A stretch of DNA of 64,000 bases from an archaeon (GCA_043806035.1 JAZDHK010000033.1:33003-97002); one strand, 5' to 3'. Numbered from the stretch's first letter, positions 1 through 28,029 are shown. Translations and numbers: made by a program. Notes: generated from the letters alone by a model not told the origin.

Positions 1-3000
1 GGATGCACGACATACAAAATACGCATTAGACAATTCAACACTTCTTGCCAACACGGACAACGTGCTCAATATCACGGCGAGAAAGACGAACGGCAGCGGC
101 ACCTGGGGTCCTGAAGGACAGGTATTTGCACTGCTCACTGAGGATGAGCAGCAGCCCTGGTTTGTCCTCTCTGACGTGTACATGAACACGTGCACGCCAG
201 CATGCATCGGCACGCTCAGAGGCAACTATTCAGAACCGAACTTCTTCAATCTTGAAATAACGGGAAACATATCCGCACCGTACTATACGGAGACCCCTCC
301 TGCGCAGCCATTCATCATAACACTCGAACTCAACGAGAGCGATGCGCTCATTTACGCGTCCATGCGGGACAGGGCAGGCAATCTCGCCTATCTCGAACGG
401 CAGGGACAGTATGATAATGAAAGCCCTGAACTGGAATTGCTTGAAGTCATCTCTAGACCTGACGGGTATGCTTTTGCAGACAATAATTTCACATGGCGTG
501 TCAAGAGACTGCAAGGCAATACACCCATACGTGTTAACGTCACCATTCGCGGAAGGATTGTCAGCACGGATTACCAGTATGTCAACTTGCGCAGCACAGA
601 CTCGACGCCCGTGCTGAACGTGAACATCACACCAGACATCAACGGATTCTTCTCCTATGACTTGCCACAAGAACTCATACCTATTACGGGAAGAGAGAAC
701 AATTACACGTACAACTTGTCCATATATGACCTTGCAGGGAACGTCCTGCTCATCCCGTTGCGTATCGTCTATGATCTCTCACCCCCTCTCATCACCGTGC
801 AATATCCTGCAGGCCATCCTGCTCGTCCGTATGATATTTTTTCGAATGAGCCACAACCTATGTTCTCGCTGCTCACTGATGAAGGGACGCTGTGCAATCT
901 GACCTACTATCCTCAGGACAGCCTCCTGCTTTGGACGGACAGCATAGAGGGATATGGTAGTACGCACCAGCAACGGCCATCCTACCAAATAGATCTCGTG
1001 CATAATGCGTTCAACGTCACCTGTGCAGACCTCGTCGGCAACACCGCCAATGCACCGTACCATTTCTTCTTCGACAATGAAGGTCCGCGCATACGCGCAA
1101 TAACCCTTACTACGCCAACGAGCAACTACGATGTCTTCCAGGACGAGAACCACGTGCAGTTCTACGTGTTCAACAGAACAGACACCATCATCAACTTCAG
1201 CATGATGAACAGCACGGGACAGGACGAGCCGTACACGTACTGCAAGTACGACCAGGATGACGTTCCCTACGAGCAGATGGCACTCGATGCAAATTACGTC
1301 TACGGATTCTCAGAATCGAGAAGGGCGACAAACCTGCTCAGCCTCACAAGCAACGAAACACACTACATTGCCTGCGCGGACTTCCTAAACAACACCCTGC
1401 AACAGCCCTACACCAACTACCGTGTCGATCTTTTCTCCAGTCCCACTGCCCCGCTCATCTGGAACGTCAAAGTGGACAACAAGACCGCAGGATACATCAG
1501 GCATTTGACACCAAAACTGGAAGTGTTCGCCAGCAGGTTCTTGACCTCCTGCACATACACGCAATACGTGGGCACGGAGCTTCCACTTCAGCGAGACCCG
1601 ACACACAATGGCGTCTATGACTTATTAGACACGGACAACAATCGCATTTTCGATGACATTCTCGACTTACAAAACGGGTTCATCTACCGTTTTGACATCA
1701 GCTGTCAGGGTGCGGGCAGCGAGACGGCAAGCATAACCGTCATGACCGACAACAGCACCTTCATTACCATCACTGATCCAGAGAACGGCGAGGTATTCAA
1801 CGACCCTCTGCGAACCATAACGGTGGTGACAGAGCCGGACAGCAACGTCACCGTGCTCGTTAATAACACCAACCCACGATCGGAATTCACAACCACGCCA
1901 ACGCTCATCCTGCAGAACGTCCTGCTACGCTATAACGGCAGCAACAACATCAGTGCACGCACACTCGATCATGCAGAGAACACGGCACAGGACAGCACCC
2001 TTGTTGTGTACAACATGTCCGGACCCTCAGTTAACATAAGTCTTGCTATCAATGATAACCAGTTCAGCAACCAAGAGCTGTGGATGGTCAACGACACATA
2101 TAACCTCACCATGAACTTCCAGAGCAGCAATCCTCTCTTCGATATTACCAGGACACGGCTGGTTTTCGAGAATGCAACACATGCACCTGTTGTGTTCACT
2201 AACACCACAATAGGGAATCGCATGCTGCTCACACCGGCCGCTCCATTCGTTCTCGTGAACGATTACACATTGGCAGTGGTTGCTTATGACCAGTATGGCG
2301 TTGCAGGAAGCACTGCTTTCTTCACCATCCTCATCAGGCCAGTCCCCAAGATAGTCGCCACTAGCCCGCAAGATGGCATTATCGTCTATGATACGGAGCA
2401 GAATTTCTCAGGCACATTCACTCCCTATGCGGAACAAGCGTACCTGCGCATAAACAACAGGACGATCATATCGTCGAATCCAGCATTCCAGTTGACAAGT
2501 ACAACATATACGTATGCAAGCGCGCTGTGCCAGGACATTATTCCTGGATTGAATACGTGGACCGTTTTTGCAGCACTCAACGAAACATGGGCAAACACAT
2601 CAGGAAGCTTGACCCTGCAGCAAAGCCTCCCTCCGAATGTTACGTTGTTCAGCACGCAAGAAAACGTCTTTGTTGACGACAACACCTTTAGGACCAATCA
2701 AACGCAGGTCAACATCAGCATCAACATCAGCGACGATGACAATGGCTGGTATGTCATCGAGAATGCCACTCATCGCATGGCCAGCGGCAACTTCTCAACC
2801 CTTCCAGAAACGCACACGTTCACGCTTACCGGCTTGACGAATGGAGCAAGCCGTCACCTCAACATCACCGCACAAGATAAGACGTGCAATGTGCGGGCAA
2901 TTGCAGTAACCGTCGTTAATGACAATCAGGCACCACTCATCAACATAACAGAGCCATTCTACTACAATAATCAACTCTTTGCAAGCACGGTGACTCCTGC

Positions 3001-6000
3001 ATTCGTCATCGATACGGACGAGTCCGCCAGTTGCACGGTCATGTACACGCATAGCGGGGCGTATGGTGAGCCGTACATACTCTATTTAGGTAATGTTTCA
3101 GGGCACCATCACGAACTCCTGCCTGACCAGCAGTACTTCAGCATAGATGTGAACAGCAACGTGAACATCACGTGCAAGGACGTGTTTGGCAACAGCAGGA
3201 CCGTCACTCCTTGGCCAACGTTCCGCTTCGACAACACCCCGCCAGCTATAAGTGATTTCACTATCTCTTCCTCTACAGACAGATTCCTCATGACGAGCCA
3301 ATCAAACTATGAACGGACATTCTACGTGTTGGACAACAGCACCCGGCTCAAGCTCATCATGAACGAAGGCTATACGTCCTGCAAGTACAGCACGGTCAGC
3401 GAGCCGTACGCGGAAATGGATGTTGATTTCGACAACACGCCCTGGTCGGGCTATACCCGTTATTCTCCCTTCATCAACCTCTCCACCACCTTACAGGACT
3501 ATTACGTGTCCTGTGAGGATCCCAGCCAGAACGCCATCACACCTCCGTATCTTTATCATCTTGCCCATCAGGATGCATTCAGGCTCATCGTCGGCGTACG
3601 CATGAATGCCAATCTCAACGATACGTTCATCAACCAATTGCATCCGACGCTCTATCTTGACAGAAGCACGACAGATACGAGTTGCTCCTACCGGCAGTAC
3701 ATGTTCAACAACAGTGCATGGCAAGATCTGACAGTAGGTCCTGCAGTAGGCTTCAACGGGAATGGATATACTGTCTCTCATGCAGTGGATATGCTGAGCA
3801 ACAACACCTACCTGTTCAACATCACCTGCCAACGATTCTTGGAAGTGGATAGGGCAGCATTCATCATCCACACGGACACAAACACGTATGTCAACATCAC
3901 TGATCCAGCAAACAATGTGGTGAGCAGGGATCCATCAATAAACATCACCGTACAACACGAGAACGACAGCAGGCTCATCGTCTTCGTGAACAACACAGAG
4001 CAATACAACCAGACAACAAACGATATGGTACAAACTGCCGTGCCCATTCTCCTGCCTGGCAACGGATCATCGCCAGTCAAGGCACGCATCATCGATCATG
4101 CAACCAACACGGCAGAGCACACCATAACCCTCGTCTATAACATGACCGGCCCTCTTGCTGCGTTGACGTTGTTCGCCGTGAACGACGCGCCTTACGGCAG
4201 TAACGTAGAGCAGCTCACCAGTGCAGAGATACAACTTGACTCTCTTGAGACACCATCGCGCATCAACCTCGCCAATACAGCCATAACCGTCTTCAATACT
4301 ATGAATCAGCCGGTGAATTTTACGAGAAGCATGCCTCTTGTTCCTGGAAACACGGTACGCATACAGCTCGATAATGCTGCGACTTTGCCTGGGGATTATC
4401 GTCTTAATGTCGTGGCAAGGGACGCGTTCAACGCATCGGGCAGCACGGCCAGTTTCATTATTGCAGTAAGGAACGCTGCGAACATCCTGTCAGAAAATCC
4501 CCCTGCGGTTATCACGGAAGCGAATGCGTTGTTCAATGGCACCCTCACACCGTATGCGGACAGGTTTGAACTGCATGTTCTCAGACCGACGCGAGGATGG
4601 CAGAACGTCACTATATTCACTGCCCCTGCGACAACGTACGCATACACGGCGAGCTGCAGTCTGCTCGAGCAAGGACTGAACGAGTATACACTGTATGCAG
4701 TGCTGAACGGCACTGCCTCCTGGCTGGAACGTACTGTTGAGCTTCAGCCTTCAGGCGTGCCCAATCTCTCTGTTGATGTCACGAGCAGCGTTGGCGTTGT
4801 CAGCAAAGAGAATGCGACAACGTTCAGGACGAATGCATCAGCAGTAAACCTCAGCCTGACTTTCTCTGATGATGACGGCGGCACGTACCGGGTGAATGGC
4901 ACAAATCTTAATGTACAAGGACAGTTCAATGAATCCTACACCATCCTCCACCAATTCACGCTCGCCATGCAAGCAGGCCAGGACAGGCTGTATCCTTATG
5001 ACATCAACGTCAACGACAGGAGCTGTAACGAACTCCTCACTATGGTAACTGTCATCAGGGATGACAAGGCACCCATAATCGGTGTGCGTTCCCCCTTCCT
5101 GGACAGCGGCAGGCTGTACGCGGCGAGCAGAAACGCAGTCATCAATGTCAGCACAGACGAGCAGGCGACCTGTCAACTCACGTATACAAGTGAAAGTGGT
5201 GCTGTGCTTCCTGGAGAATTTGCAAGCGCAGACAATCGAACGCACACGTTCTATGGCGTTTTCCTGAACAACACACCCGTTGTCATAAACTGCACGGACG
5301 TCTTTGGACACGTTGGCAGGACAACCCCACAAATCTTAACATTCATTGTTGATGACGTCCCACCATCCATCCTCGAATGGGATGTCATCAACCCTAATAG
5401 TCGCTACTTGCGCAACAGTACGAACAGCACTGATTTCGTCAAGGACTTCATCATTTATAGAGGCAATGGTACGGACATCCGCGTCAAGGTCGATGACCGG
5501 AATGCAACGTGTAAGTATGATTTGAGCACCACTACCTTTGAGAACATGCAATACACGTTAGAAGAATATGACGTGCATAACACACCACCCTACTACGTGC
5601 AGTTCAGAATAGGCAGCCAGCTCAACTTCACGGAAGGAGAAGTCAAGACACTGCACGTCTCTTGTGCCGATCCTGCAGGCAACGTCATGGACCAAAGAAT
5701 AAATGCAGGAGAGACATCATTCTACTATGATCACTTCACGTACAGGATGAACTACACATCTACCATCGGCCTCTTCCTCGGCCTGTACATCAACAACAAA
5801 GAGAACAACTCCTACATCAACAACCTGAACGCGCAATTGCGCGCCATAACCTTCGACGCACTACGCTGCAGATACACCTACTTCATCGACAATGCTGGCT
5901 GGCAGGAGCTTGGCGAAGATATCATGAGCCGTGTTAATTACACGCACACGGCAACAATTGCTCTTGAGAACAACAAGACCTACCGCTTCGACGTGTACTG

Positions 6001-9097: not shown

Positions 9098-9108
9098 AGA
9101 GGTGAGGT

Positions 9109-12100
9109 ATGAAACATGCACTGTTCGTGCTAGTGCTGCTAGTCATCCCGCTCGCTCTCGCTGTCGATGTGCTACCAGGTAATCTCGTGACGAACAACGT
9201 CCAACCCACCATACACATCTTCTTCGACAAGAACACATCTGTTACCAACGCATCATTATGGAATGTTTCTGGACGCATGCCCGATACGTTCTTCTCCTAC
9301 GACCATGCCGTGAATGACACGACCCATTGGTATTTCAGCATAGAGCAGCCGTTGGCACACGGCAATTACAGCCTGCGATTCAACGCCACGGATGCACTCA
9401 ACAATTCTGACCCGAACAAGAGAGTTTATTTCTTCATCGACCTCATCAAGCCGAACATCACCGCACTCACCATGTATCCCTGGAGAAACGATTACTTGAA
9501 CGTCAGCAACCAAACTATAACTGTAACGACGATGGATAACCTTCCCGGCGTGCGCCTTATCGATGTCGTGCTGCGCAGGCAATCGACGACAACGAACATC
9601 ACTGCGCAGTTCAGGCAGATTACGTCCTGGGTATTTCAGGGCAATGCATCCATTCCTGATGGGAATTATACGCTGCTCGTGAACATCAGTGATGCTGGGG
9701 GCAATCGCGCAGACAGGAATCTTTCCTTCCTCATGAACGCAGAACCATTTCGCGTATTCTACGTTGCCCCTCCCTTCGGCTACACGGCAATAAACCCGTT
9801 TAATCTCACGCTGGGCACGAACAAGCAAGCCACCTGTTATTACAGCAAGAACAGGAACACGCCTTTCGGCAGCATGCTGCCCTTCACGGAGAGCGACGGC
9901 TTCAATCACCTCATTGCGAGCTTCCTGCTCGATGCAGCAATACAGAATATCACCGTCCAATGCATGATCCAAGAGGGAGGACTGAGTGACAGATTCAGCA
10001 TCGAATTAGGGTATGATGCGACACTGCCGAACATACAGGACATGAGCGTGCATCCCAACAACGGGCAACCCGTTATTAACGAGGACCTTGACAATGCCTA
10101 TCTTCGCGTACTAACTGATGATACGGCGCGATGCAAGTACAGTTTCAGCACGGATAACTATACGGATATGCTTCCGTTCGAAAATTTTTCCCAAGGAATA
10201 TTTGACGTATCAAACGCTCATTTCTTCAATGGGGAGATCGAGAATGGCAACAATTACACGGTCTTTGTACGCTGCGAGAATCGCGCAGGACTAATCAGCA
10301 GCGCACGCACCTTGCCGTTCAGTGTAGACTTGCAGGCAGCGGCAACGATAACCATCATTAGTCCATTGGCATACGTGCACAATCCCAATATTGTGTTCAA
10401 CATCACTACGACAGAAGCCACCACGTGCACGTATGACGGCAGGCCATTCGAGCATGGAGGAGGCACAAGAAATCTCTATACGGATCCCACGTGGTATGAG
10501 GACGGCAGCCACTCCGTCGTCATCGCATGCGAATTCCAGCAAGGCCTGCAAACCAAGAACGTGACGTTCATCGTCGATACCGTGCAGCCCAGCCAAGCCG
10601 TCATTGCCGTGGACAACATCAGCTGCAATCCCGAACGCATCACGGCAAGCTTCTCTGCCAACGACACGAACGGCATTCTCGGATACAATTACACCGTCAG
10701 TGGCCCAGGAGGTGTTGTCAAGGAATGGACATTCGGCAGCAGTGGAGAGTATAGCGGAGACTTGCAGGAGGGTGCCACGTACACGTGGAGGGCATACGCC
10801 ATCGACCGTGCAGGCAATGCAGGTCCTGAAGCCGCGCCCAAGAGTACGCGTGTGCTCAGTCCAGACAGCCTCTCGTGTGACGATACCTCTCCGCAGATTT
10901 CCTTCGATGCAGACACGGATCAAAATCAGATACGCATAATGGTTGATTGTTATGACAGCGATAGTGGCTGTGTCGACACGTTCTGGTATGATCTCAAGCT
11001 GTCCAGCAGCACCGCCTGCACATACACACGCTTGAGAAACATCAGCCAACCCGTGCTGCTCAATGATTCTGCAAAATTCTGTGCATTAGTGAAAGACAAG
11101 GCAGGAAACAATGCGACAAAGAGCGAATTCTTCTCCCTGCACATCAACGCAACGCACTGCAATAATTCGGAGAAGGATGGCGACGAATCCGACACGGACT
11201 GCGGCGGCAGCTGCTTGCCCTGCACGAAAGGGAAGCACTGCACGGACACGCAAGACTGCCTCGCCACGTTGTTTTGTGCCGCAAACAGCATATGCCAGCA
11301 ACCAACATGCAATGACACCATCAAGAATGGCCAAGAGTCAGATGTGGACTGCAGCGGTGATTGTCCTCCTTGTGCGCTCAACAAGACGTGCACAGTAGCG
11401 GTAGACTGCGAAAGCGGCTACTGTGCCAGCGGCAAGTGCAGCGTCGCCTCCTGCAACGACGGTGTGCAGAACGGCAATGAGTCAGACATTGATTGCGGCG
11501 GCCAATGCGTAAAGTGCGAGCTCAACAACCGTTGCGTGGTAGATGCTGACTGCATGTCCGGATTGTGCAAGCTGAGTTTCTGCACGAAGAAGATAGACGA
11601 GCAGGAGGTTCTGCCTCCCGAAGAGGCAAGCCACACGGCATCCATCGTGCTGCTCATCATCGGAGGACTGCTCATGCTCGGCGGTGCAGGATATCTGGTG
11701 TATGTCACCAAATTCGCATCACCGCCAGCCACCCCTCCTGCCATGCAGCAGAAACCACCGCAACGACCCGTGCTGCAGCAATCGAAAGGCCGTTTTCATT
11801 TCAAGAAGAGACCATCACTGCTGCCAACGCACTTCGCGCCAGCCCCGGAGAAGAAGCCGGTGCAGGAAGAGTATGTGGATGTTCGTGATTTGCAGACGAA
11901 GTCTGAAGAGAAAAGCGATGCCTTTAAAGAACTGGAAAAAGTGAGTTCTGATGTCAAGGATCCTTTCGCGGCATTGTCCAAAATAGGAGACAAGGCAATA
12001 GCGAATCTTGCGACAAAACGCCAGCTGGATACACAAGACATCGTCACGCTTGTCGAACATGCAGGGCAAGGACAGCAGCAGCTCACCGAGACCGTGCTGA

Positions 12101-12225
12101 AAAAACTCCTCTCAACCAATGCAATAACCAAGAAAGAGATCAGCGATGCGCTCTTCGAGCTTATGGACCAGCAGAAAATACGCTCGGACGATGCGCAGAA
12201 ATTCATGAGCGATCTCGACATCTAG
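9109..12225 (+). CDS. type I membrane surface protein: Sec signal peptide, Ig-like two-Cys modules, 3 Cys-rich repeats, TM helix, ~170-aa cytoplasmic tail
   Basis: GAGGTGAGG SD lies 3 nt upstream of the ATG. N-terminus MKHALFVLVLLVIPLALA|VD. DxAGN motifs (SDAGGN, IDRAGN, KDKAGN). TM helix ASIVLLIIGGLLMLGGAGYLVYV, followed by a Pro-rich then K/E-rich tail. Dense sequons occur only in the ectodomain. Confidence 0.88.
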   Translation: MKHALFVLVLLVIPLALAVDVLPGNLVTNNVQPTIHIFFDKNTSVTNASLWNVSGRMPDTFFSYDHAVNDTTHWYFSIEQPLAHGNYSLRFNATDALNNSDPNKRVYFFIDLIKPNITALTMYPWRNDYLNVSNQTITVTTMDNLPGVRLIDVVLRRQSTTTNITAQFRQITSWVFQGNASIPDGNYTLLVNISDAGGNRADRNLSFLMNAEPFRVFYVAPPFGYTAINPFNLTLGTNKQATCYYSKNRNTPFGSMLPFTESDGFNHLIASFLLDAAIQNITVQCMIQEGGLSDRFSIELGYDATLPNIQDMSVHPNNGQPVINEDLDNAYLRVLTDDTARCKYSFSTDNYTDMLPFENFSQGIFDVSNAHFFNGEIENGNNYTVFVRCENRAGLISSARTLPFSVDLQAAATITIISPLAYVHNPNIVFNITTTEATTCTYDGRPFEHGGGTRNLYTDPTWYEDGSHSVVIACEFQQGLQTKNVTFIVDTVQPSQAVIAVDNISCNPERITASFSANDTNGILGYNYTVSGPGGVVKEWTFGSSGEYSGDLQEGATYTWRAYAIDRAGNAGPEAAPKSTRVLSPDSLSCDDTSPQISFDADTDQNQIRIMVDCYDSDSGCVDTFWYDLKLSSSTACTYTRLRNISQPVLLNDSAKFCALVKDKAGNNATKSEFFSLHINATHCNNSEKDGDESDTDCGGSCLPCTKGKHCTDTQDCLATLFCAANSICQQPTCNDTIKNGQESDVDCSGDCPPCALNKTCTVAVDCESGYCASGKCSVASCNDGVQNGNESDIDCGGQCVKCELNNRCVVDADCMSGLCKLSFCTKKIDEQEVLPPEEASHTASIVLLIIGGLLMLGGAGYLVYVTKFASPPATPPAMQQKPPQRPVLQQSKGRFHFKKRPSLLPTHFAPAPEKKPVQEEYVDVRDLQTKSEEKSDAFKELEKVSSDVKDPFAALSKIGDKAIANLATKRQLDTQDIVTLVEHAGQGQQQLTETVLKKLLSTNAITKKEISDALFELMDQQKIRSDDAQKFMSDLDI
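11158..11583 (+). repeat. three tandem ~47-aa eight-Cys repeats (C-N-x4-[DN]-G-x-E-S-D-x-D-C-[GS]-G-x-C-x2-C ... D-C-x-[ST]-x2-C-x4-C)
   Basis: Read directly from the translation: CNNSEKDGDESDTDCGGSCLPC..., CNDTIKNGQESDVDCSGDCPPC..., CNDGVQNGNESDIDCGGQCVKC... Confidence 0.85.
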
Positions 12226-13038: not shown

Positions 13039-13149
13039 ACAGCTTCTACCCGTTTCAGATATATAAACTTATTGCGAAAAATGCCCTTCTTTATCAAGGT
13101 GGTCGAGGATGTCGTCCATGATCAGACAGAACACATCGATTATATACAT

Positions 13150-13554
13150 TTATTTCATGAAGATCACGAACGCGAAGAACACGAAGACGATGCTCAGGGG
13201 GAAGAAGGTGAAGAACACAAATTTATTCCATCACCACACCTTCCTGCCGTCGAGCATAGCGACAGGCAGCATGTTGAACAAGGCAAGTCATGAGTTAATG
13301 AGCACGCCGAACAGACTGAGGACGTGCCAGATTCCCCGTAACAGCACCAACGGCAAGAAAAACAGTACGAGCAACAGATTCACTGCAGGCCCGACGACGG
13401 AGATGATGCCTTTCTGTTTCTTCGTGATGTGGCCTGAGATGTACACAGCACCCGGAGCGGCGAGGATGAATCCGAACAGACTAATCACCACCCCAGCAAC
13501 AGCATGTTGAAGTATGCACGAAACTCGGCGAAGCAGCTTCCAGACCGCAATCAT
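13150..13554 (-). pseudogene. decayed M50/site-2-protease-like gene with two in-frame TGA codons and a lost HExxH
   Basis: Minus-strand frame reads ...SCILQHAVAG...VVGPAVNLLLV...GVLINS-TGA-LALFNMLPVAMLDGRKVW-TGA-WNKFVFFTFFPLSIVFVFFAFVIFMK-TAA. GPxxN and N-x2-LA-x-FN-x-LP-x3-LDG are the M50 signature blocks and continue in frame across the stops. The position of H-E-x-x-H reads C-I-L-Q-H. Confidence 0.55.
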
Positions 13555-14091: not shown

Positions 14092-14094
14092 AGT

Positions 14095-16087: not shown

Positions 16088-16103
16088 TGTGCTAAGAACA
16101 AAC

Positions 16104-16111
16104 AATATAAA
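16104..16111 (+). promoter_or_regulatory. TATA-like box (AATATAAA) about 27 nt upstream of the 31-aa ORF
   Basis: Spacing matches the other leaderless starts in this window. Confidence 0.4.
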
Positions 16112-16133
16112 CGTGTACGTCGGTTGAATCATT

Positions 16134-16229
16134 ATGACTATCGGTTTTTGGGCAAAGTTGCTCTTCATCTGCATCGTCTTGGGAGCACTCATCGTTATGA
16201 CAATAAAACTCGTGGGCATATTTTCGTGA
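16134..16229 (+). CDS. 31-aa hydrophobic micro-ORF s1 (below the ORF-track cutoff)
   Basis: ATG ACT ATC GGT ... TCG TGA translates to MTIGFWAKLLFICIVLGALIVMTIKLVGIFS. A TATA box sits at about -27. It ends 4 nt before P5. Confidence 0.35.
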   Translation: MTIGFWAKLLFICIVLGALIVMTIKLVGIFS

Positions 16230-16233
16230 ATGC

Positions 16234-17160
16234 ATGGAAACTAAACCTTTGGCAACGGTTATTATGGCAGTCATCATAGCCGTGCTACTCTTAGGGATGC
16301 TTGCATACTCTATCGCTACTATCAAGAAGTTTGAGGACAGGGACAAGTGCAGGCTCACCTCGTGGGCGCAGGCGAACAGCCAATACCAGCCAGGCATTGC
16401 AGGCATCATTCCAGGACCAAAGTTCGATTTAGGATTACGCCAAGACTGCCCAACCTATTACGTGACGTTCACCAAGGACAAGGTCACGGAGAGGAAAAGC
16501 AACAGCGACGACACGGAAGTGCTCAGCGTCTATGACAGCACACGGGGGAAACTGGTACAAAAGTACAAGCAGCTCACACCAGACATGGTCAACAGCGTCG
16601 TCGCAGAACAAATGCGTTACTGCTACTACCAGTTCTGGGAAGGCAAAGTGCCTGTCTTTTACAACAAGTATACGGACATCAATGTTTTATCAACGATTGC
16701 ATTCGGTGTTGTTGGTGTTGCACTGACCCATGCGAACAACGTCCGCTGCTTTCCCTGTGCGGAATTGCACTTCAGCGACAGTGTTGATTATGACTCAAAC
16801 AAAGGCAGTGGTCTGTCCGTGCAAAACCTTCCAGAAACACAACTCCCCCCTTCTGAAAATACGGCAAGCATAGGCTATTATTTGGTCAACAGGAAAGGCA
16901 AGAACATGAACAGCACGTATTTTGATTATTTGAACAGCTACAACGGCTACTGCCAACTTACGACGGGCAAGCAGGGAAGCTGCCTGGCTGAAGAGCTCAA
17001 TGACATGGACATAGATCCCTATCTCGTGCTGGAAAAAGACAAGTACTACAAAGTCTTGCTTATCAGGAGGGGAGAGGAACGGGACGAGTACACCATAACA
17101 TCGTATGTTGTCCCTGCTGATCGGGAAGCAAAGATATGCACGGAGGGCATGGTGTCATGA
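16234..17160 (+). CDS. N-terminally anchored secreted protein P5, 308 aa (paralog of P6)
   Basis: METKPLATVIMAVIIAVLLLGMLAYSIA, with no clear K/R-G motif. Shares EQMRYCYYQFWEGKVPVF ... VRCFPCAELHF with P6. Confidence 0.78.
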   Translation: METKPLATVIMAVIIAVLLLGMLAYSIATIKKFEDRDKCRLTSWAQANSQYQPGIAGIIPGPKFDLGLRQDCPTYYVTFTKDKVTERKSNSDDTEVLSVYDSTRGKLVQKYKQLTPDMVNSVVAEQMRYCYYQFWEGKVPVFYNKYTDINVLSTIAFGVVGVALTHANNVRCFPCAELHFSDSVDYDSNKGSGLSVQNLPETQLPPSENTASIGYYLVNRKGKNMNSTYFDYLNSYNGYCQLTTGKQGSCLAEELNDMDIDPYLVLEKDKYYKVLLIRRGEERDEYTITSYVVPADREAKICTEGMVS

Positions 17161-18041
17161 AGGCACAAATAAGCAGTCTCTTGCTCGTCACCATTGTCAC
17201 GATACTGACCTTGCTCGTCGTGCTGCTCGTCATGTCCGGCATATTCTCGAGCACGAATGATGCCTTTGCGTACAAGGACTGCCAGGCGAGCGTGGAAAAA
17301 TTCATCGCCCGCACAAAATTGACGAAAGATTACACGACGGCGAGCATCACGTGCAGGACGAGAACGGTGAATGTACGCGCCACTGATCAGGAACAGGTGA
17401 AACGGCAACTTGCGGAGGAAATGCGCAGCTGCTGGTCAACATTCAAACAAGGTAATGTACGGTTCTTCGTTGAAGAGGGCACGTACTGCCACCCCTGTGC
17501 TATTGTCAATTTTAATAAGAGAATGAAACCGATTACTGATTTCAATGCGTACTTGGCGCAAAGGAAGATGACGAGCAGCAACCTCACGTATGCGGCTTAT
17601 TTTATAGGTTACAGCACGCCTGGAGGACAGGAATTAGCAGTCTTCACAGATAATGCAAGTTTTGGAAATGCTCTTCTCCTTGATCCGCAGAAGCATTATG
17701 TCGTGCTGTTCCACCACATGATGGGCATGGAAACCATACGACAATTCAAAGAAAGAATAGGCGGTGAGACGAACGCAGTATTTTTAGGCATTGGAGCGGG
17801 GGGTGCCGCTGCTGGAGTTGTGGGTATTATTCTTGTTACTGCAGGAGTTGTTTCTGGACCCATAGGCTGGATCATCTTGGGCGCAGGCATGGTCATAGGG
17901 GGGGTGATTGCAGACATTTGGGGAGACCCTCCAGAATGGGTGAGCAGCATCATGCTTATAGAATACAAGCCGGGAGAACTCGAGAGGCTCGGCTGCCAAT
18001 TTGATGAAGTGCAGCAGGACATGTTCGGCAACCTAAACTAA
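17157..18041 (+). CDS. pilin-like protein P6, 294 aa, with a C-terminal glycine-zipper TM pair
   Basis: ATGA overlap with the P5 stop. MKA|QISSLLLVTIVTILTLLVVLLV. EEMRSCWSTFKQGNVRFF ... YCHPCAIVNF. C-terminus GIGAGGAAAGVVGIILVTAGVVSGPIGWIILGAGMVIGGVIA. Confidence 0.78.
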   Translation: MKAQISSLLLVTIVTILTLLVVLLVMSGIFSSTNDAFAYKDCQASVEKFIARTKLTKDYTTASITCRTRTVNVRATDQEQVKRQLAEEMRSCWSTFKQGNVRFFVEEGTYCHPCAIVNFNKRMKPITDFNAYLAQRKMTSSNLTYAAYFIGYSTPGGQELAVFTDNASFGNALLLDPQKHYVVLFHHMMGMETIRQFKERIGGETNAVFLGIGAGGAAAGVVGIILVTAGVVSGPIGWIILGAGMVIGGVIADIWGDPPEWVSSIMLIEYKPGELERLGCQFDEVQQDMFGNLN

Positions 18042-18044
18042 ACA

Positions 18045-18053
18045 TTTATAAAA
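18045..18053 (+). promoter_or_regulatory. TATA box (TTTATAAAA) about 27 nt upstream of the 45-aa ORF
   Basis: Located immediately after the P6 stop. The spacing implies a leaderless transcript starting at ATG 18076. Confidence 0.45.
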
Positions 18054-18075
18054 TTAGTTCACGCCTTGCACGGGC

Positions 18076-18213
18076 ATGCATGGCCAGAAAAGCACTTTGA
18101 AGGAGATGATCGTTCTTGCAGCGGTGATTATCATTTTCATCATCATTTTGTCGTTTTTATTCAAGGACAAGGTTTCCAACCTGGTCGATAGCATCATTTC
18201 CGTATTCCACTAA
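18076..18213 (+). CDS. 45-aa Flp-like mini-pilin candidate s2 (below the ORF-track cutoff)
   Basis: MHG|QKSTLKEMIVLAAVIIIFIIILSFLFKDKVSNLVDSIISVFH. It has its own TATA box. The TAA stop lies 2 nt before the P7 ATG. Confidence 0.5.
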   Translation: MHGQKSTLKEMIVLAAVIIIFIIILSFLFKDKVSNLVDSIISVFH

Positions 18214-18215
18214 CT

Positions 18216-19013
18216 ATGAAAGGACAACTCAACAAGCAACTGTTGGGCTTCATCATGCTAGCCATTGCAATCATCATGGCATACTTGTTGCTCACGCACG
18301 GCAGAGACTATGCATTCAAGATGCAATACTGGCTCTTCGGACCACCATCCGACGATGATGATCGTGCACACTACTATTTTGATCGCATGGCAGAATTCCT
18401 CGAGAGCTCCGCAGTGACGGACGATTTCTCGAAAAAATTGCCAACAGAGGTACCTTGCCTGCTTTCACGGTATGCGTACGATGAGGACAAGCCGCTCTCG
18501 AGCAAGTACTTCTTCAGCGTCGACTATGAAGGGCCTGCAGACAACCAGCAGGGCAACAAGGCATACGTCTTGCACATGCACGTGCAAACGCCATCAGGCT
18601 TCATTGATAATGCCTCAAAAAGACTGGGCGTGCAGACGTTCAGGTATAGGTGCTCTGCAATCGAGCCAAAAGTGAACAGACCTCCCGTCATGCTCGCGCA
18701 GGACGCATTCCTTTGTGGAGTGAACCCCCCTGCACGGTACATACTTCTCCCGGACCAGCACGTTGCAGGTATGCCGTTCCTGCAGGACTACGCCCAAATA
18801 AACAAGACCACGAACACGTACTACTTTTCCCGCTACCCTTCATTGTACATCTTTGCAGACACGGCAAACCCTGTTGAAGAGGACAAATACCGATCCTACT
18901 TTTACGTCTTCGACCCCGCAGACAGCATGTACAAGGCAAGCTCGACTCGAGACAGCATACTGCGCAGCCTGCAAGAGATTCCCTCCTGCACGTTCAAGAA
19001 GCGGAAGACGTGA
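18216..19013 (+). CDS. pilin-like protein P7, 265 aa
   Basis: MKG|QLNKQLLGFIMLAIAIIMAYLLL. Confidence 0.78.
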   Translation: MKGQLNKQLLGFIMLAIAIIMAYLLLTHGRDYAFKMQYWLFGPPSDDDDRAHYYFDRMAEFLESSAVTDDFSKKLPTEVPCLLSRYAYDEDKPLSSKYFFSVDYEGPADNQQGNKAYVLHMHVQTPSGFIDNASKRLGVQTFRYRCSAIEPKVNRPPVMLAQDAFLCGVNPPARYILLPDQHVAGMPFLQDYAQINKTTNTYYFSRYPSLYIFADTANPVEEDKYRSYFYVFDPADSMYKASSTRDSILRSLQEIPSCTFKKRKT

Positions 19014-19036
19014 CTGCGGCCGCAGCATCCGAAACC

Positions 19037-19044
19037 TTTAAATA
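19037..19044 (+). promoter_or_regulatory. TATA box (TTTAAATA) upstream of P8
   Basis: About 45 nt upstream of ATG 19088, which has a GAGGTGA SD. Confidence 0.4.
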
Positions 19045-19087
19045 GTGAAAGAGCGGCTGTATTTCTAAAAGTTTCGAGGTGACGGTT

Positions 19088-19342
19088 ATGAAGAAAGGTG
19101 TGGAACTTTCTATGAATGTCATCATCATTGCAGCAATAGCACTCGTTGTTTTGGTGATATTGGTGGTGCTTGTCCTAAACAGCGCAGGGCCTGTGGCGGA
19201 CACGAACAAGTGTGGCGCGGGGCAAGGCATGTGCATCGGAGAAGGCGATGAGTGTGGTGACGGCTACATCGTGCAGCCGTTGAGCAACTGCCCGACAGCA
19301 ACGCCGAAATGCTGCGTACCCTTTGGCGGCGAGCAGCAATAA
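19088..19342 (+). CDS. mini-pilin P8 with a six-Cys C-terminal knob, 84 aa
   Basis: GAGGTGA SD. MKKG|VELSMNVIIIAAIALVVLVILVVLVL, then C-x6-C-x6-C-x11-C-x6-CC. Confidence 0.82.
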   Translation: MKKGVELSMNVIIIAAIALVVLVILVVLVLNSAGPVADTNKCGAGQGMCIGEGDECGDGYIVQPLSNCPTATPKCCVPFGGEQQ

Positions 19343-19352
19343 AGGTGCAAGC

Positions 19353-19589
19353 ATGAGAAGAGGTGTGGAACTTTCTCTTAATTTTATCATTATTGCGGTC
19401 ATCGTGCTCGTCATCCTGCTCATAGCCATCGTTCTCGTCATCAATGGCGGCACGAGCTTCAATAGGGACACGAAGACCTGCACGTCAAGAGGAGGACAGT
19501 GCATTCCGGGAGGGGACAGTTGCCCTTCTGGCTCGATACCTGTTCCTGGCGTAGAGGGATGTGACGGCAGCTGCTGCCTCGGGGCATAG
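19353..19589 (+). CDS. mini-pilin P9 with a six-Cys knob, 78 aa (tandem paralog of P8)
   Basis: AAGGTG SD. MRRG|VELSLNFIIIAVIVLVILLIAIVLVI, then C-x6-C-x6-C-x12-C-x3-CC. Shares the 15-mer ggtgtggaactttct with P8. Confidence 0.82.
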   Translation: MRRGVELSLNFIIIAVIVLVILLIAIVLVINGGTSFNRDTKTCTSRGGQCIPGGDSCPSGSIPVPGVEGCDGSCCLGA

Positions 19590-19592
19590 CTC

Positions 19593-19721
19593 ATGAGGAG
19601 TACAGAGCTGGCGATGAACAGCATCGTCACCATGGCCGTTGCTGCCTGTCTCTGTTGTTCATCTACTCAGGTGATGGTTCAATTAACGAATGCTGCATAT
19701 CAGGTGAGAGTTGTTGCATAG
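19593..19721 (+). CDS. 42-aa degenerate third copy of the VELS mini-pilin N-terminus (s3), possibly a remnant
   Basis: MRSTELAMNSIVTMAVAACLCCSS... aligns with the [KR]-G-VELS-[ML]-N-x-I-I-I start of P8/P9. The hydrophobic stretch is short. Confidence 0.3.
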   Translation: MRSTELAMNSIVTMAVAACLCCSSTQVMVQLTNAAYQVRVVA

Positions 19722-19725
19722 ACAT

Positions 19726-21420
19726 ATGAAGAAAGGCATGGCTGCCCTGGAGTTTGTCGGCTACTTGCTGCTGATGCTCGTGGTCATTCTAGTAGCGATG
19801 TATCTCATCAATGGAGGAATAAGCATGTTTGGCATGGCTACCGGCTGTGAAGGGCAGAACGGCGTGTGCAAGGAATCCTGTGGTGAGAATGAACGAACGG
19901 TCATTTTCTTCAAGGGCTGTCCCCCGTCTGATGACAGGGCAGATAAGGAGAAGAAGCACTGCTGCGCCCCGCAAAAAGAAGATCAGGAAGGAGGCAGCGA
20001 GAGTGATGCGAAGTGCAAGAACCAAAATAATGGGTACGCCTGCGGCAATGGCACGCTCAGATACGGCAATAGAAACATTCCCTTCGTTTCCATGGTGTGC
20101 TTAGACCAGAAATGCGTGCCTCGCTGCGACTTTTGTGCAAGAGTCCTGGGCAGCGATACTGTTTGCAATCCGCTGCCAGGCGTGAATCAAGAAGTCACGT
20201 TCACTGATGCTTTCTCGTGCAGAGCCATGGAAAGTCCTCTGGATTGTGATGCACTCAACCTGCATGGTGACTGCATCAGAGGCTTCTGCCCGGGTGACAC
20301 GTACTGTGCAAAACGAGACGGCAATGGAGCGAGAGATGGTGAATTGTACATCCGCTATTCCGACCAGCCAGAATACTGTGCGGGAGACTGCGCCTTGCCT
20401 GGCACAATCGTGATCGTCGGTGACCCATTACGCCTCACCGTCAGTTACTCTGGACCGGACAGGAAGCTCTGCGCGGTAGATGTACTCAGAGAGGATGGGC
20501 AAGCCAACAAATTCGTCAGGCAGTTCACACCAGCATGCAGGAACGTTTCCTTAGATAATGGTCCATGCTCATTCAGGTGGGTGTTTGAATGCGGAGGAGA
20601 TGCACCTGCATTCGTGCTCGAGAATGACCCATTGCAGTTTCTAGTGAACAGTTCAGAATATGAATTGTTGAAGAATGTGCCCTTGCGTATCGATGTCATC
20701 GCCTATAATTGTGACGTCAGCGATAAGCAGGGCAACGTCCAGACGAGTCCTTGCCAGGACAAGGGAAGAAACGAATTAGCCCACGCCCGCATTTCTCTCG
20801 ACTTAATGAAGCCGTCATCTGCAGAGCTGCGCAAAAGAAATCCCATAATCACCATAGCATCATCCAATCCATCGACGAAATCCTGCATTGTTACCTGCAA
20901 GAACTCATTGGGGGAGCAGTGTGGGCCGCTGAACTACCTGGGTGTGGGTGCAGGAGAGCAGTGTGGGGAGAACTTGAACTGGGAGGGAAATTTGCCCACA
21001 CTAGCCTACAACAAGTGGAACGAACAGCCAATAGACAGAACAGCAAACCCTGTATTGTGCTTCAGAGGCAGGCTCACGAGCAACCCGCTCTTCGTTAATT
21101 ACACGACAGACCCTAACGGGTGTGAGCGGTTCTTCTACCAGAAAGTAGCGGAGGAGCAAGTGTGCCTGTGGAACAGCTGTGCACAAATTTCTGATGCTGC
21201 ACAATGTGAAGACACGCTCAGCCAAGGCTGCAGCTTCAGCTGTATTTGGGATAATGTGAAAAAGACGTGCCGGCTGTGCAGCACGCCCGAAACCCAATGC
21301 AAGTACATCAGAGACAGGGCTGCCTGTGATGCTGCAGCAGAAAAGTGCGGCATGCAATGCCACTGGCGGCGACGATTCCTGTTCCTGCCTGACACGTGCG
21401 AGCCGGGGCCGAGACCATGA
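19726..21420 (+). CDS. pilin-like, extremely Cys-rich secreted protein P10, 564 aa
   Basis: MKKG|MAALEFVGYLLLMLVVILVAMYLI, then knob C-x6-C-x3-C-x12-C-x13-CC. About 44 Cys by my count (an even number). Confidence 0.82.
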   Translation: MKKGMAALEFVGYLLLMLVVILVAMYLINGGISMFGMATGCEGQNGVCKESCGENERTVIFFKGCPPSDDRADKEKKHCCAPQKEDQEGGSESDAKCKNQNNGYACGNGTLRYGNRNIPFVSMVCLDQKCVPRCDFCARVLGSDTVCNPLPGVNQEVTFTDAFSCRAMESPLDCDALNLHGDCIRGFCPGDTYCAKRDGNGARDGELYIRYSDQPEYCAGDCALPGTIVIVGDPLRLTVSYSGPDRKLCAVDVLREDGQANKFVRQFTPACRNVSLDNGPCSFRWVFECGGDAPAFVLENDPLQFLVNSSEYELLKNVPLRIDVIAYNCDVSDKQGNVQTSPCQDKGRNELAHARISLDLMKPSSAELRKRNPIITIASSNPSTKSCIVTCKNSLGEQCGPLNYLGVGAGEQCGENLNWEGNLPTLAYNKWNEQPIDRTANPVLCFRGRLTSNPLFVNYTTDPNGCERFFYQKVAEEQVCLWNSCAQISDAAQCEDTLSQGCSFSCIWDNVKKTCRLCSTPETQCKYIRDRAACDAAAEKCGMQCHWRRRFLFLPDTCEPGPRP

Positions 21421-22085
21421 GGGGAGAGGCAACACATGATCAAGTGATAGGGTTCATCATACTTGTCTTCATCCTGGTGGCTGTTGTTTTTGGCATTTAT
21501 TGGAAATTCTTTCACAAGAGCGAGCAGCAAATAGCTGACTTAGAAAGTTGCGGAACGTTCAGCATCGTCGTCGCTGGCGACAGCCTGACGCGGCCAGGAG
21601 AATGCATTGTTGGAAAATGCCCGACGGACAGGCAATACAAGCAAGTGCCTGGAATGTGCGATCCAGGAATGGTGTGCTGTGTGGATCAATCATTGGAAAC
21701 GGATGTTCCTGTGCTCATGTACCGGCTCAAGGGAGAGGATACTCGGAAGTACAAGCCAATGCAAGGCAGCATAAATCTCGAAAAGGGCAAGAAATACGTC
21801 TTCAAGATGCCACAGCTCACCGAGCAGCAGGATGCAGTATCGTGTGCAATCACCATGTACGAAGTCGATGATTTTGAGCAATTGCCCACGCAAGAGGGAG
21901 GCAATGACAACAGCGCCAGAGACGAGCGCATTGACTGGGCAAAAAACAACTGCATTGAGAATGCGACAACATGGATGGATATAATCTTTCCCGAAGAGGC
22001 CAATTATTTGCTGTTCATCAAGAGTATTGACTCCTCAGGGGAGGAACTCGTCGTTGAGCCTGTTGAGCTGAGCGTGGTCTCGTGA
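21417..22085 (+). CDS. pilin-like protein P11, 222 aa
   Basis: ATGA overlap with the P10 stop. MRG|EATHDQVIGFIILVFILVAVVFGIY. Knob C-x17-C-x4-C-x12-C-x5-CC. Confidence 0.75.
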   Translation: MRGEATHDQVIGFIILVFILVAVVFGIYWKFFHKSEQQIADLESCGTFSIVVAGDSLTRPGECIVGKCPTDRQYKQVPGMCDPGMVCCVDQSLETDVPVLMYRLKGEDTRKYKPMQGSINLEKGKKYVFKMPQLTEQQDAVSCAITMYEVDDFEQLPTQEGGNDNSARDERIDWAKNNCIENATTWMDIIFPEEANYLLFIKSIDSSGEELVVEPVELSVVS

Positions 22086-23512
22086 ACGGCAGCCTTGATT
22101 TTCATTTCCTTCTTGAAGCGATCATGATTTCCATCATCGTGCTCTTCATCTTTGGTTGCGTCAATGGTGCATACCATTCGTTGACGAACGCTGACGATAG
22201 GCAGGTGAGCCTGAACAACTTCAACGCCTTAGCAACGGGCATGCAGAGTCTCGTGAACGTGCAGGACAGAGTCATGGTACAAGGCATGACCTTCTCTCTC
22301 CCTGCCAGAGTATACGTTGTCGGCTTTGACAGCGAATGGAATGAGAATGTCAAGCAGGCAGGATTGACAGATGACAGCTCCTATGAAGGTGTGCACAAGC
22401 CACAACAATGCTTGGTGAACGAGCATTCGCCAGAGGATGCTTGCTTGTGCTTGTACGAGAATGAGCAATTCGCCTACATGCACGGTAGCGAGAACAGGTT
22501 TGGAAAATTAAGTCCAGAAGAACGCATCAAGGCGTACGAAAAGCCCATCATGGCCTGCTACGTGTTCTCCTCAAAACCCGATGTGGCGGGGAGGTTTAAG
22601 CCAATAGTCTTCCTTAGCACGTGGGCAAGCAGCGACAGTCCCGTTGCAGAGAATGCAAAAAAGCCGTTCTTTGCAACAGTCCGTCCAGACCAGCCTCCGT
22701 ATGCTGGCGTCTTGGGAAGCAAGGATAACGAAGCAGGAAAATATGCATTCCTCATCTTCAAAGGCAATGACAAAACCCACACGCTCTACTACGAAAAGTA
22801 TGAGACCGACGAAAAAATTTACATTTACCTTACCACGAAAGTAGCGACACAGGACCTTTCCTTCAGAGAGTACGAACTCAAAAAACAGGCAGGATATTGC
22901 AGCGACAACAGCCATGCCAATTGTGCGGGAAAGACCATAGGAACGAGCATAGGCACGGGAAGGTATGGCAATACGCTCGACGAATGGTATGCTGTTAGTC
23001 AAGGAAGGTATGCGCAAGCAGCACCCTCTGCGGTGTGCAACGGCCGTTTCACGTGCGAACCAATATCAGAGGAGAAAGGATGCAGGATCGTCTGCCAGCC
23101 GTACTGCATAGAGCAGTGCAAAGACCAGAACTGCAAGGCAGCAGTCATCACGGAAAAGTGCGAATGCAACGGCATCAAATTTTCTGGCTACTGCGCATGC
23201 ACGCAGGACGTCACCACTGGCACGTGCCCCGCCATTGACGGCATTCCCACCCTGCTCTATCACGACCAAGTCATCCAGGGATACGGCGATGCATTGCAGC
23301 AATGCATTGCCGAACACATTGCAGACGACGCGTATGTCGAAGATCAGCTGAAGAGCATAGTGCATTATGCATCAGATGACTATGCCGACTGTAGTTTTGA
23401 GCGTCTCGATGGTGACGATGCGTTCAGTGCATGCGAGCACGATGTGTGCATGGCATCGGCGAACCCTTCCTGTGTGATTGCTGCAGAAGACAGATGCACG
23501 CCTCGACGATAA
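22082..23512 (+). CDS. pilin-like protein P12 with a Cys-rich C-terminal region, 476 aa
   Basis: GTGA overlap with the P11 stop. (M)NG|SLDFHFLLEAIMISIIVLFIFG. C-terminal CNGRFTCEPISEEKGCRIVCQPYCIEQCKDQNC... Confidence 0.75.
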   Translation: MNGSLDFHFLLEAIMISIIVLFIFGCVNGAYHSLTNADDRQVSLNNFNALATGMQSLVNVQDRVMVQGMTFSLPARVYVVGFDSEWNENVKQAGLTDDSSYEGVHKPQQCLVNEHSPEDACLCLYENEQFAYMHGSENRFGKLSPEERIKAYEKPIMACYVFSSKPDVAGRFKPIVFLSTWASSDSPVAENAKKPFFATVRPDQPPYAGVLGSKDNEAGKYAFLIFKGNDKTHTLYYEKYETDEKIYIYLTTKVATQDLSFREYELKKQAGYCSDNSHANCAGKTIGTSIGTGRYGNTLDEWYAVSQGRYAQAAPSAVCNGRFTCEPISEEKGCRIVCQPYCIEQCKDQNCKAAVITEKCECNGIKFSGYCACTQDVTTGTCPAIDGIPTLLYHDQVIQGYGDALQQCIAEHIADDAYVEDQLKSIVHYASDDYADCSFERLDGDDAFSACEHDVCMASANPSCVIAAEDRCTPRR

Positions 23513-28022: not shown

Positions 28023-28029
28023 GTTCTAT

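Follow-up and report, generated by a model that had tools for sequence, protein, structure and literature searches.

A conserved cluster of pilin-like and giant surface protein genes, mostly without a linked assembly motor, in DPANN archaea

What would an archaeon build from a series of pilin-like proteins and very large surface proteins that are encoded side by side, with no pilus assembly machinery next to them? The question is raised by a 64,000-nucleotide stretch of an archaeal contig (GCA_043806035.1, JAZDHK010000033.1:33003-97002; hereafter the window), in which the plus strand of positions 1-23512 encodes a giant protein (A), a membrane protein (B), 13 proteins with type IV pilin-like N-termini, and small membrane proteins (Table 1). 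The window is a piece of archaeal chromosome, with an RpoN-L13-L18e-RpoD-S11-S4-S13 cluster, PCNA, an archaeal signal recognition particle (SRP) RNA, and a GC content of approximately 0.50. An initial reading made from the sequence alone had proposed a dedicated attachment or contact fibre with giant glycosylated adhesins, and re-examination of the open reading frames (ORFs) confirmed the gene coordinates and gene order on which it was built. The results below lead us to favour, at a probability of roughly 0.6, a locus that supplies the structural and adhesive components of a type IV filament-like fibre, with the motor genes located elsewhere.

Conservation of the gene order in relatives had been set beforehand as a test of this proposal. 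A word-indexed search with P2, the hallmark protein of the locus, returned a single close homologue (43% identity) on a 27-kb Joint Genome Institute (JGI) contig. This closest relative (handles L001 and L087 below) carries the genes in the same order, i.e., a giant gene (3156 aa), B (1028 aa), P1-P4, s1, P5, P6, s2, and P7-P12, and its proteins are 21-57% identical to their orthologs in the window. Two metagenome scans, using the giant proteins of the window and of the relative as queries, gave no match, and the window's P10 and P2 have no exact-sequence record. An exhaustive profile search with P2 recovered 1,499 representatives of clusters formed at 50% identity with E<=1e-3, and 299 of them reach E<=1e-30; almost every match is full-length (approximately 330-370 aa), with KKGxxE(I/V)QFNWIF at the N-terminus and SCPLIY at the C-terminus, and examples that carry a name are annotated as "hypothetical protein, Candidatus Woesearchaeota archaeon". 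When a 12-sequence alignment was used as the query, P2 relatives (24-33% identity) were found in 227 GTDB species representatives, whose records are mostly titled Woesearchaeota, Nanoarchaeota, Nanoarchaeia, or Nanobdellota; the best identity between the window's own P2 and these representatives is 33%. Many locus-bearing GTDB records (e.g., L007, L009, and L012) are titled "uncultured Methanosarcinales archaeon" and one (L016) "Candidatus Binatia bacterium", which look like generic or wrong labels.

Gene order was compared across 87 sequences, consisting of 86 fetched loci and the first 30 kb of the window, by ORF calling followed by iterated hidden Markov models (HMMs) seeded with the window proteins. 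P2 was found in all 87 sequences, P3 and P4 in 83 each, and P1 in 69; the four genes are single copy, and the order P1-P2-P3-P4 never varies. The overall order is giant(s), a B-type protein, P1-P4, and then P5/P6 together with multicopy small pilins that carry a Cys-knob. In 76 of the 87 sequences, giant or B-type proteins are encoded just ahead of P1, and the gene immediately before P1 is almost always B-like, having a signal peptide and one transmembrane (TM) segment 140-340 residues from the C-terminus. Members of the B family itself are directly 5' of P1 in approximately 60 loci, where their stop codon mostly overlaps the P1 start. Two upstream architectures recur, one with proteins of approximately 2000 and 1060 aa (the window type) and the other with proteins of approximately 860, 420 (class III), and 1700-1970 aa. 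The P5/P6 paralog family is found in approximately 57 loci and P12 in 27, and the P8/P9-type small pilins with a Cys-knob (80-110 aa) number 175 or more copies in 59 loci, mostly several per locus. The synteny test is thus clearly passed, with the gene order held in the 43%-identical relative as well as across the 87 sequences.

The closest relative also shows where the locus begins. Upstream of the locus in L087 are housekeeping genes (SecY-like, EMC3/DUF106-like, and L34e), and the giant gene is immediately preceded by P0, the end of which overlaps it; the P0 product has 956 aa, is Cys-rich, and begins with a perfect class III leader (MRSKRG/QFTLF, the slash marking the predicted cleavage site). 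P0 belongs to a family of approximately 420 aa that lies upstream of giants in 30 loci. Its position in L087 defines the upstream edge, and the giants are thereby bracketed by pilin-like genes; a P0 counterpart would be expected just beyond the 5' end of the window. In the window, the locus ends with P12, and the next gene encodes a purine nucleoside phosphorylase.

We then asked if the N-termini of the P proteins are those of pilins. All window ORFs were scanned with a FlaFind-like rule, which requires [KR][GAS] in the first 25 residues and an uncharged 20-residue hydrophobic window within the next 8. Nine real genes carry the motif, all of them between 14.1 and 22.1 kb; from 24 to 64 kb, no real gene does, and only spurious antisense or embedded ORFs were hit. 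In the closest relative (L001), all P proteins carry canonical leaders, and the orthologs of P1, P5, P12, and s2 begin with MKG/Q, MKKG/T, MKG/E, and MKKG/Q, respectively, in agreement with the earlier proposal that nearly all products bear class III-like signal peptides. The [KR][GAS] leader site is kept in 78 of 81 P2, 31 of 32 P4, 29 of 30 P3, and 25 of 31 P1 family members; Gln at +1 is nearly invariant in the P1, P3, and P4 families, with an acidic residue further on, at +3 to +6. The first 30 residues of the P1-P4 families are more conserved than the rest (top-residue frequency 0.60-0.72 vs 0.41-0.51), and profile-profile comparison by hhalign showed that the P1, P3, and P4 profiles share the N-terminal ~30 aa only (probability 81-90%). 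Type IV pilins, unlike generic signal anchors, are typified by a conserved leader and helix to which unrelated heads are joined. Because the site is kept in most members, the N-terminus is the best conserved part, and the profiles share the N-terminus only, these comparisons support the view that the N-termini of the P proteins behave as class III (type IV pilin) leaders rather than generic anchors. The AlphaFold2 model of P2 (81-sequence alignment; pLDDT 92.2, pTM 0.86) predicts a 53-residue N-terminal helix (residues 6-58) followed by a beta-rich domain and a C-terminal helical region; the structure prediction that had been proposed as a check thus yielded, for P2, a confidently modelled long N-terminal helix on an otherwise unmatched fold.

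A number of observations weigh against the filament. Within the window, the leaders of P1, P5, P12, and s2 are non-canonical, and those of P1, P5, and P12 lack the basic residue at -2. Foldseek of the P2 model against the PDB found no counterpart (best E 0.013, TM-score <0.2), the P1-P4 family profiles have no match among PDB sequences, including any pilin, and no product matched a pilin family in Pfam (Class_IIIsignal and PF04021 included) or NCBIfam at E<=1. The sequence-only reading, which recognised no family among the pilin-like products, is borne out by all three databases, and because no curated family matches, pilin membership rests on the leader motif, the conservation pattern, and the predicted helix. 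The machinery is the second concern: Pfam detected no secretion ATPase, T2SSF/FlaJ platform, or A24 peptidase in the whole 64-kb window, none of the three is present within +-10 kb in 84 of the 86 related loci or 5' of the giant gene in L087, and an earlier groundwater study stated that components of type IV pili (T4P) are missing from DPANN genomes. Furthermore, the roles that we propose below for individual subunits are drawn from analogy and copy number only, and A and B might belong to the cell envelope, as S-layer-like proteins, instead of acting as adhesins.

The earlier statement that no assembly machinery is in sight is true of the window and of 84 of the 86 loci, but not of all relatives. 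Pfam analysis of 120 non-family flank proteins matched 153 families, of which the 25 most frequent are housekeeping; two matches are to T2SSE (L028 and L075). The one in L028 is a 766-aa secretion-type ATPase encoded directly after P4 on the opposite strand. Inspection of selected flank ORFs revealed a close homologue in L029, which is located directly upstream of P0-giant-P1-P4 on the same strand. The locus is thus without a motor in 84 of 86 loci and is joined to a T2SSE ATPase in one lineage. The match in L075 was rejected as a motor, being a KH-domain PilT-like housekeeping ATPase. A 549-aa protein beside the L029 ATPase was considered as a platform and turned out to be a class III protein of the P0 family, and the polytopic proteins of 242-246 aa that follow P4 in L009 and L029, considered as A24 peptidases, are M50-like proteases. 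A motif scan of the 86 fetched loci found no A24 peptidase, and the Pfam-negative ORFs of the window encode soluble or small membrane proteins, none of them polytopic; those of 336, 471, and 318 aa were rejected as platform or peptidase candidates since their products are soluble. Separately, the L028 ATPase is followed by two small proteins that are coiled-coil-rich by eye and recall the loci of Hamm et al. 2024.

The missing machinery characterises the locus and need not be a trait of the organism. Hamm et al. 2024 (PMC11291902) reported, for cluster 2 DPANN and Woesearchaeota among them, two conserved loci with a CpaF-type ATPase and a TadC platform. Type IV filaments (TFF) of archaea were the subject of a 2026 census, which bases its classification on the ATPase and noted that TFF loci often hold several pilins together with large Ig-fold adhesin-like or S-layer-like proteins (preprint 10.64898/2026.04.22.720090); because such a census is anchored on the ATPase gene, structural loci without a motor are missed. 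The attachment fibre proposed at the outset is partly supported, in its pilin-like leaders, its synteny, and its unmatched families, whereas the absence of machinery applies at the level of the locus only.

In the window, the listed genes all lie on the plus strand, as first described, but that strand is not uninterrupted: a 1356-bp block with three minus-strand ORFs splits B from P1. In the closest relative and most other loci, B runs with its stop into the start of P1; the block in the window is therefore an insertion. One of its ORFs is a truncated M50-like gene with two in-frame TGA codons. Recoding of TGA was considered and rejected, since TGA is the commonest genuine stop in the window (31 of 48 genes), and the ORF is a decayed pseudogene; intact homologues sit directly after P4 in L009 and L029. 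Apart from the interruption, the proposed grouping into four tightly packed units (P1-P4, s1-P5-P6, s2-P7, and P8-P9-s3-P10-P11-P12) agrees with the spacing, which within the units consists of 2-10 nt gaps or ATGA/GTGA overlaps. P1-P4 (13582..16087) are joined by a gap of 3 nt and then overlaps of 19 and 4 nt, P5 and P6 by an ATGA overlap, and s2 and P7 by a gap of 2 nt; in the last unit, gaps of 10, 3, and 4 nt are followed by ATGA and GTGA overlaps. TATA-like boxes are located 5' of s1, s2, and P8, positions that fit the proposed transcription units.

Table 1. Features of the locus, of the remainder of the window, and of related loci. Coordinates are window positions unless a locus handle is given; a slash marks the predicted leader cleavage site.
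Feature	Coordinates	Strand	Remarks
A, giant secreted surface protein, >3031 aa	2..9097	+	open at window start
B, type I membrane glycoprotein-like, 1038 aa	9109..12225	+	Sec signal peptide; TM aa 844-866
Region of B with conserved C-terminal tail motif	11707-12225		
Minus-strand block between B and P1	12226-13581		1356 bp, three minus-strand ORFs
Zinc-ribbon-like protein, 69 aa	12222-12431	minus	B-P1 block
Membrane protein, 191 aa	12463-13038	minus	B-P1 block
Truncated M50 (site-2 protease)-like gene	~13110-13553	minus	B-P1 block; NMLPVAMLDG motif
P1, pilin-like, 169 aa	13582..14091	+	heads P1-P4 quartet; leader MNA/Q, KK[GSA]/Q in relatives
P2, hallmark protein, 348 aa	14095..15141	+	leader MQRG/VFEIQFNWIF; C-terminus CPLIY
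P3, pilin-like, 160 aa	15123..15605	+	KKG/QLQMLE; 19-nt overlap with P2
P4, pilin-like, 161 aa	15602..16087	+	MKA/QMEIMGL; ATGA overlap with P3
s1, single-TM, 31 aa	16134..16229	+	TATA-like box upstream
P5, P6 paralog, 308 aa	16234..17160	+	leader non-canonical (METKP...), KKG/ in L001 ortholog
P6, pilin-like, 294 aa	17157..18041	+	MKA/QISS; extra Gly-rich hydrophobic C-terminal region
s2, small pilin-like/TM, 45 aa	18076..18213	+	MHG/QKST, MKKG/Q in L001; TTTATAAA upstream
P7, pilin-like, 265 aa	18216..19013	+	MKG/QLNK
P8, small pilin, 84 aa	19088..19342	+	MKKG/VELSMNVIII; 6-Cys C-terminal knob; GAGGTGA Shine-Dalgarno upstream
P9, P8 paralog (49% identical), 78 aa	19353..19589	+	MRRG/VELSLNFIII
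s3, 42-aa ORF	19593..19721	+	doubtful gene
P10, modular pilin-like, 564 aa	19726..21420	+	P8-like leader, helix, and Cys-knob, then ~470-aa extension; 44 Cys
P11, pilin-like, 222 aa	21417..22085	+	MRG/EATHDQVIGFIIL; Cys-knob and extension; ATGA overlap with P10
P12, 476 aa, 25 Cys	22082..23512	+	N-terminal hydrophobic helix; leader NG/S, MKG/E in L001; GTGA overlap with P11
SRP RNA, archaeal	25918-26186	+	
tRNA-Leu(GAG)	28029-28116	minus	
DsbA/Thioredoxin_4 proteins (two)	32300-33223, 33233-34996	minus	one GILT-fused; ~10 kb downstream of locus
ORF without Pfam match, 336 aa	35307-36317	+	
NrdR-type repressor	41083-41604	minus	Zn-ribbon and ATP-cone
tRNA-Ala(CGC)	49990-50065	minus	
tRNA-Pro(CGG)	50590-50660	minus	
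ORF without Pfam match, 471 aa	56957-58372	minus	
ORF without Pfam match, 318 aa	58341-59297	minus	
P0, 956 aa	L087:2460-5330		end overlaps giant gene
T2SSE ATPase, 766 aa	L028:12375-14675	minus	directly after P4
T2SSE ATPase, close homologue of L028's	L029:3-899	+	directly upstream of P0-giant-P1-P4
GILT/DsbA gene	L072:15428-17281		3 kb after P4
Pilin-leader murein hydrolases	L057:17426-18487, L038:14078-15361, 19 further loci		locus downstream end

Among the pilin-like genes, the P4 family is marked by invariant Q+1, E+3, and four Cys. A small ORF at the s1 position, between P4 and P5/P6, is kept in relatives, as is the place of s2 ahead of P7; P7 itself is fast-evolving (21% identity to its L001 ortholog). 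The s3 ORF is doubtful because it has no counterpart in the closest relative. P8-P12 are Cys-rich, with 6-44 Cys each.

Segment-versus-segment BLAST resolved A into four tandem super-repeats of approximately 740 aa, composed of Ig-like/beta-sandwich modules, which are 26-31% identical (E 1e-35 to 1e-64), and the giant repeat ORF of the first description is thereby substantiated. A has 121 N-x-S/T sequons and no C-terminal anchor, and Pfam recognises only Ig-like modules in it (Big_13 and Glucodextran_B). It evolves very fast, and its architecture differs among relatives. B starts 11 nt after A, with a Shine-Dalgarno-like GAGGTGAGG upstream, and combines Ig-like Big_13 domains with Cys-rich "DCGGxC" repeats and a 172-aa cytoplasmic tail. 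Both proteins are T/N-rich, with 3-4 sequons per 100 aa. The suggestion that B is built from the same modules as A is loosely true: the two share Big_13 and a single 98-aa match (E 6e-4), but the similarity is otherwise weak. The tail of B contains a conserved C-terminal motif of approximately 50 residues (…VFKAILSKLL..G.ISK..VSEILFEFLD…) common to a subset of distant relatives (approximately 20 loci, window included), and this conservation suggests a specific intracellular partner.

Two further groups of genes bear on what the locus might do. Downstream of P12, many relatives carry more conserved genes, encoding proteins of approximately 284, 167, 190, and 350-450 aa, and the ~190-aa and ~350-450-aa families bear class III leaders. 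In the latter family, the leader is present in 20 of 21 members and is followed by a Peptidase_M15/VanY (E 4e-12) or SLT lytic transglycosylase domain. No gene for such a pilin-leader murein hydrolase was found in the window. To our knowledge, archaea have no murein; the hydrolases therefore point to bacterial walls and suggest that the apparatus of the relatives that encode them contacts, and may breach, bacterial cell walls. The second group consists of the two DsbA/Thioredoxin_4 proteins encoded downstream of the locus in the window, with a similar GILT/DsbA gene in L072. They probably work outside the cytoplasm as disulfide oxidoreductases, possibly on the Cys-rich P8-P12, and the co-occurrence of Cys-rich proteins and DsbA/GILT genes is consistent with extracellular oxidative folding.

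On the filament reading, an A24-type prepilin peptidase would cut the leaders after [KR][G/A/S], mostly leaving Gln at +1 as in EppA/Epd-type pilins, and a T2SSE-family ATPase with a TadC/FlaJ-type platform, both encoded elsewhere, would extract the N-terminal helices from the membrane and polymerise them. P1-P4, which are single copy, fixed in order, translationally coupled, and unrelated in their globular domains, may form a priming or tip complex. P8 and P9, multicopy and variable among relatives, would make the shaft, with P8 as the candidate major subunit. P10 and P11 could be modular pilins, in which a P8-like module carries a large disulfide-rich extension for display on the fibre, and P5, P6, P7, and P12 may be further low-abundance subunits. 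B would be membrane-anchored, perhaps with its conserved cytoplasmic tail linked to the base; A would be exported as a long-reach glycosylated adhesin, for which B or the tip complex may provide the attachment. Oxidation of the extracellular cysteines would fall to the DsbA/GILT-like proteins whose genes lie 10 kb downstream. That a filament is made, that leaders are cut and proteins glycosylated, that a host is contacted, and that the genome is a small episymbiotic one are all inferences.

A different use of the same proteins, which we regard as unlikely though the best placed of the alternatives, is that they never form a filament: the class III-like proteins, processed or merely anchored, would remain membrane-bound and build a short pseudopilus or bindosome-like scaffold, which positions or exports A, B, and cargo. 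In favour of this reading, 84 of 86 loci have no linked motor, many members carry cargo domains of 300-560 aa unlike those of shaft pilins, and most relatives couple B translationally to P1; in archaea, class III signal peptides occur on non-pilus proteins too, such as the sugar-binding proteins of the bindosome (preprint 10.64898/2026.04.22.720090). However, a pseudopilus would need the same ATPase, platform, and peptidase, the abundant multicopy pilins of the P8/P9 family are of Flp/Epd size and look like a shaft subunit, and the single-copy P1-P4 quartet fits a priming complex.

Somewhat less probable again, and compatible with a filament, is that A and B are an S-layer-like envelope pair, A forming the lattice and B the anchored stalk, with the pilins part of an unrelated or loosely coupled pilus system that would have to cross this layer. 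The Sulfolobales SlaA/SlaB operon pairs its genes in the same way as the glycoprotein-like A and B, the first product being a large glycoprotein without an anchor and the second a smaller protein anchored at its C-terminus; the T/N-rich composition, sequon density, and Ig-like domains of A and B would suit an S-layer, and S-layer-like Ig-fold proteins occur inside archaellum loci (preprint 10.64898/2026.04.22.720090). Pfam finds only the Ig-like Big_13, Glucodextran_B, and CarboxypepD_reg domains. No homology to SlaA/SlaB was detected, however. A is more than twice the size of the proteins of that system, internally repeated, and, at >3000 aa with four diverged super-repeats, far above known S-layer proteins; it evolves fast and in variable architectures (~2000+~1060 vs ~860+~420+~1800 aa). 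B, in turn, has a long conserved cytoplasmic tail and, in relatives, is translationally coupled to a pilin gene, and the overlap of its stop with the P1 start in most relatives, together with the class III protein that precedes the giant, speaks for one functional unit. The idea that the N-termini are plain uncleaved signal-anchor helices on an assortment of anchored extracellular proteins, which could draw on the missing pilin HMM match, the lack of a peptidase in view, and the absent basic -2 residue in the window's P1, P5, and P12, is very improbable, since such anchors would neither hold an invariant [KR][GAS]/Q...E site across 25-30%-identical orthologs nor leave the N-terminus better conserved than the globular domain, and the motif is absent from every other real window gene.

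The type IV filament-like fibre that we favour has counterparts among known systems. Archaeal TFF loci (Epd or "system 1", "system 2"; the Epd pili of Methanococcus maripaludis; Makarova 2016) likewise hold several class III proteins with Gln at +1 and large adhesin-like proteins of Ig fold, and their major pilin candidates are very small and lack a sizeable globular domain. They differ in that they include an ATPase and a platform (and, in Epd, their own peptidase, EppA), none of which is found in the window or within the flanks of 84 of the 86 relatives, whereas the window locus has 13 or more pilin-like genes, giant proteins of >4000 aa, and no match to pilin models. Set beside the Epd pilins, with their Gln at +1 and QxSxExxxL-like N-terminal motif, P1, P3, and P4 have a near-invariant Q+1 and an acidic residue at +3 to +6; PF04021 gives no match, and EppA is absent from the locus.

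Bacterial minor-pilin/PilY1 operons (Pseudomonas aeruginosa fimU-pilVWXY1E, Myxococcus xanthus, and GspH-I-J-K of the type II secretion system, T2SS) also contain four dissimilar, co-translated pilins, one of them larger (here P2); like the window locus, they lie apart from the motor genes and beside a very large adhesin, and a priming or tip role has been proposed for them. The window locus instead has archaeal Q+1 leaders rather than G/F...E5, and Ig-repeat giants plus a type I membrane protein rather than the PilY1 beta-propeller. Neither the PDB profile searches nor Foldseek of P2 revealed homology of P1-P4 to bacterial minor pilins; the likeness is organisational only. P10 and P11 resemble the modular pilins exemplified by Streptococcus sanguinis PilB (PMC8179133) in joining a small pilin module to a large extra domain, and relatives fuse M15 or SLT domains to a pilin leader; there is no homology to PilB.

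The cluster 2 DPANN T4P loci (CpaF, TadC, FlaF, PilA, and coiled-coil proteins; PMC11291902) occur in the same lineages (Woesearchaeota, Pacearchaeota, and Nanoarchaeota) and have been proposed to act in host interaction. Their defining genes, those for the ATPase, the platform, and the coiled-coil proteins, are all missing from the window locus, which contains families unmentioned there. The window locus is probably the structural and adhesin complement of the loci of Hamm et al. 2024.

Outside the locus, the rest of the window encodes a fairly full metabolism, as judged by Pfam, including Suf, 2-oxoacid:ferredoxin oxidoreductase (POR), ribonucleotide reductase (RNR) with NrdR, IMPDH, PurN, malic enzyme, and adenosine deaminase. 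The NrdR-type repressor gene adjoins that of a class II-like ribonucleotide reductase; NrdR is mainly a bacterial regulator, and its presence on an archaeal contig may reflect gene transfer.

In kind, the locus belongs with archaeal type IV pilin clusters that include large adhesin-like proteins, which are known. No description of it was found in the literature searched, and its families are absent from Pfam, NCBIfam, and PDB; within that search, the initial impression that the composition as a unit is undescribed holds. What appears undescribed is the P1-P4 module and its families, the obligatory pairing with giant and B proteins, the motor-less organisation, and the breadth across Woesearchaeota-type DPANN. 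The families without Pfam, NCBIfam, or PDB relatives, together with the P2 globular fold, unmatched as modelled, are new structural targets, and the locus exposes a blind spot of ATPase-anchored censuses of archaeal type IV filaments.

It is still an open question by what physical means DPANN cells recognise a host and hold on to it; the majority of lineages, Woesearchaeota among them, lack cultured members, and the annotation of their surface genes reads only "hypothetical". The locus is a strong candidate for the apparatus that these archaea use to hold other cells, and it provides a testable handle in the form of P2 as a hallmark (at least 227 species and 1,499 clusters) and a fixed quartet beside the giants. 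The pilin-leader murein hydrolases in many genomes point to bacterial, not archaeal, partners. A bolder and distinctly tentative possibility is that the locus encodes the structural core of a hitherto unrecognised host-contact organelle found throughout DPANN (Woesearchaeales/Nanoarchaeota), in which a pilus-like fibre primed by a lineage-specific P1-P4 complex with new folds and equipped with giant adhesins and, in many species, hydrolases would grapple, breach, and perhaps feed on bacterial hosts.

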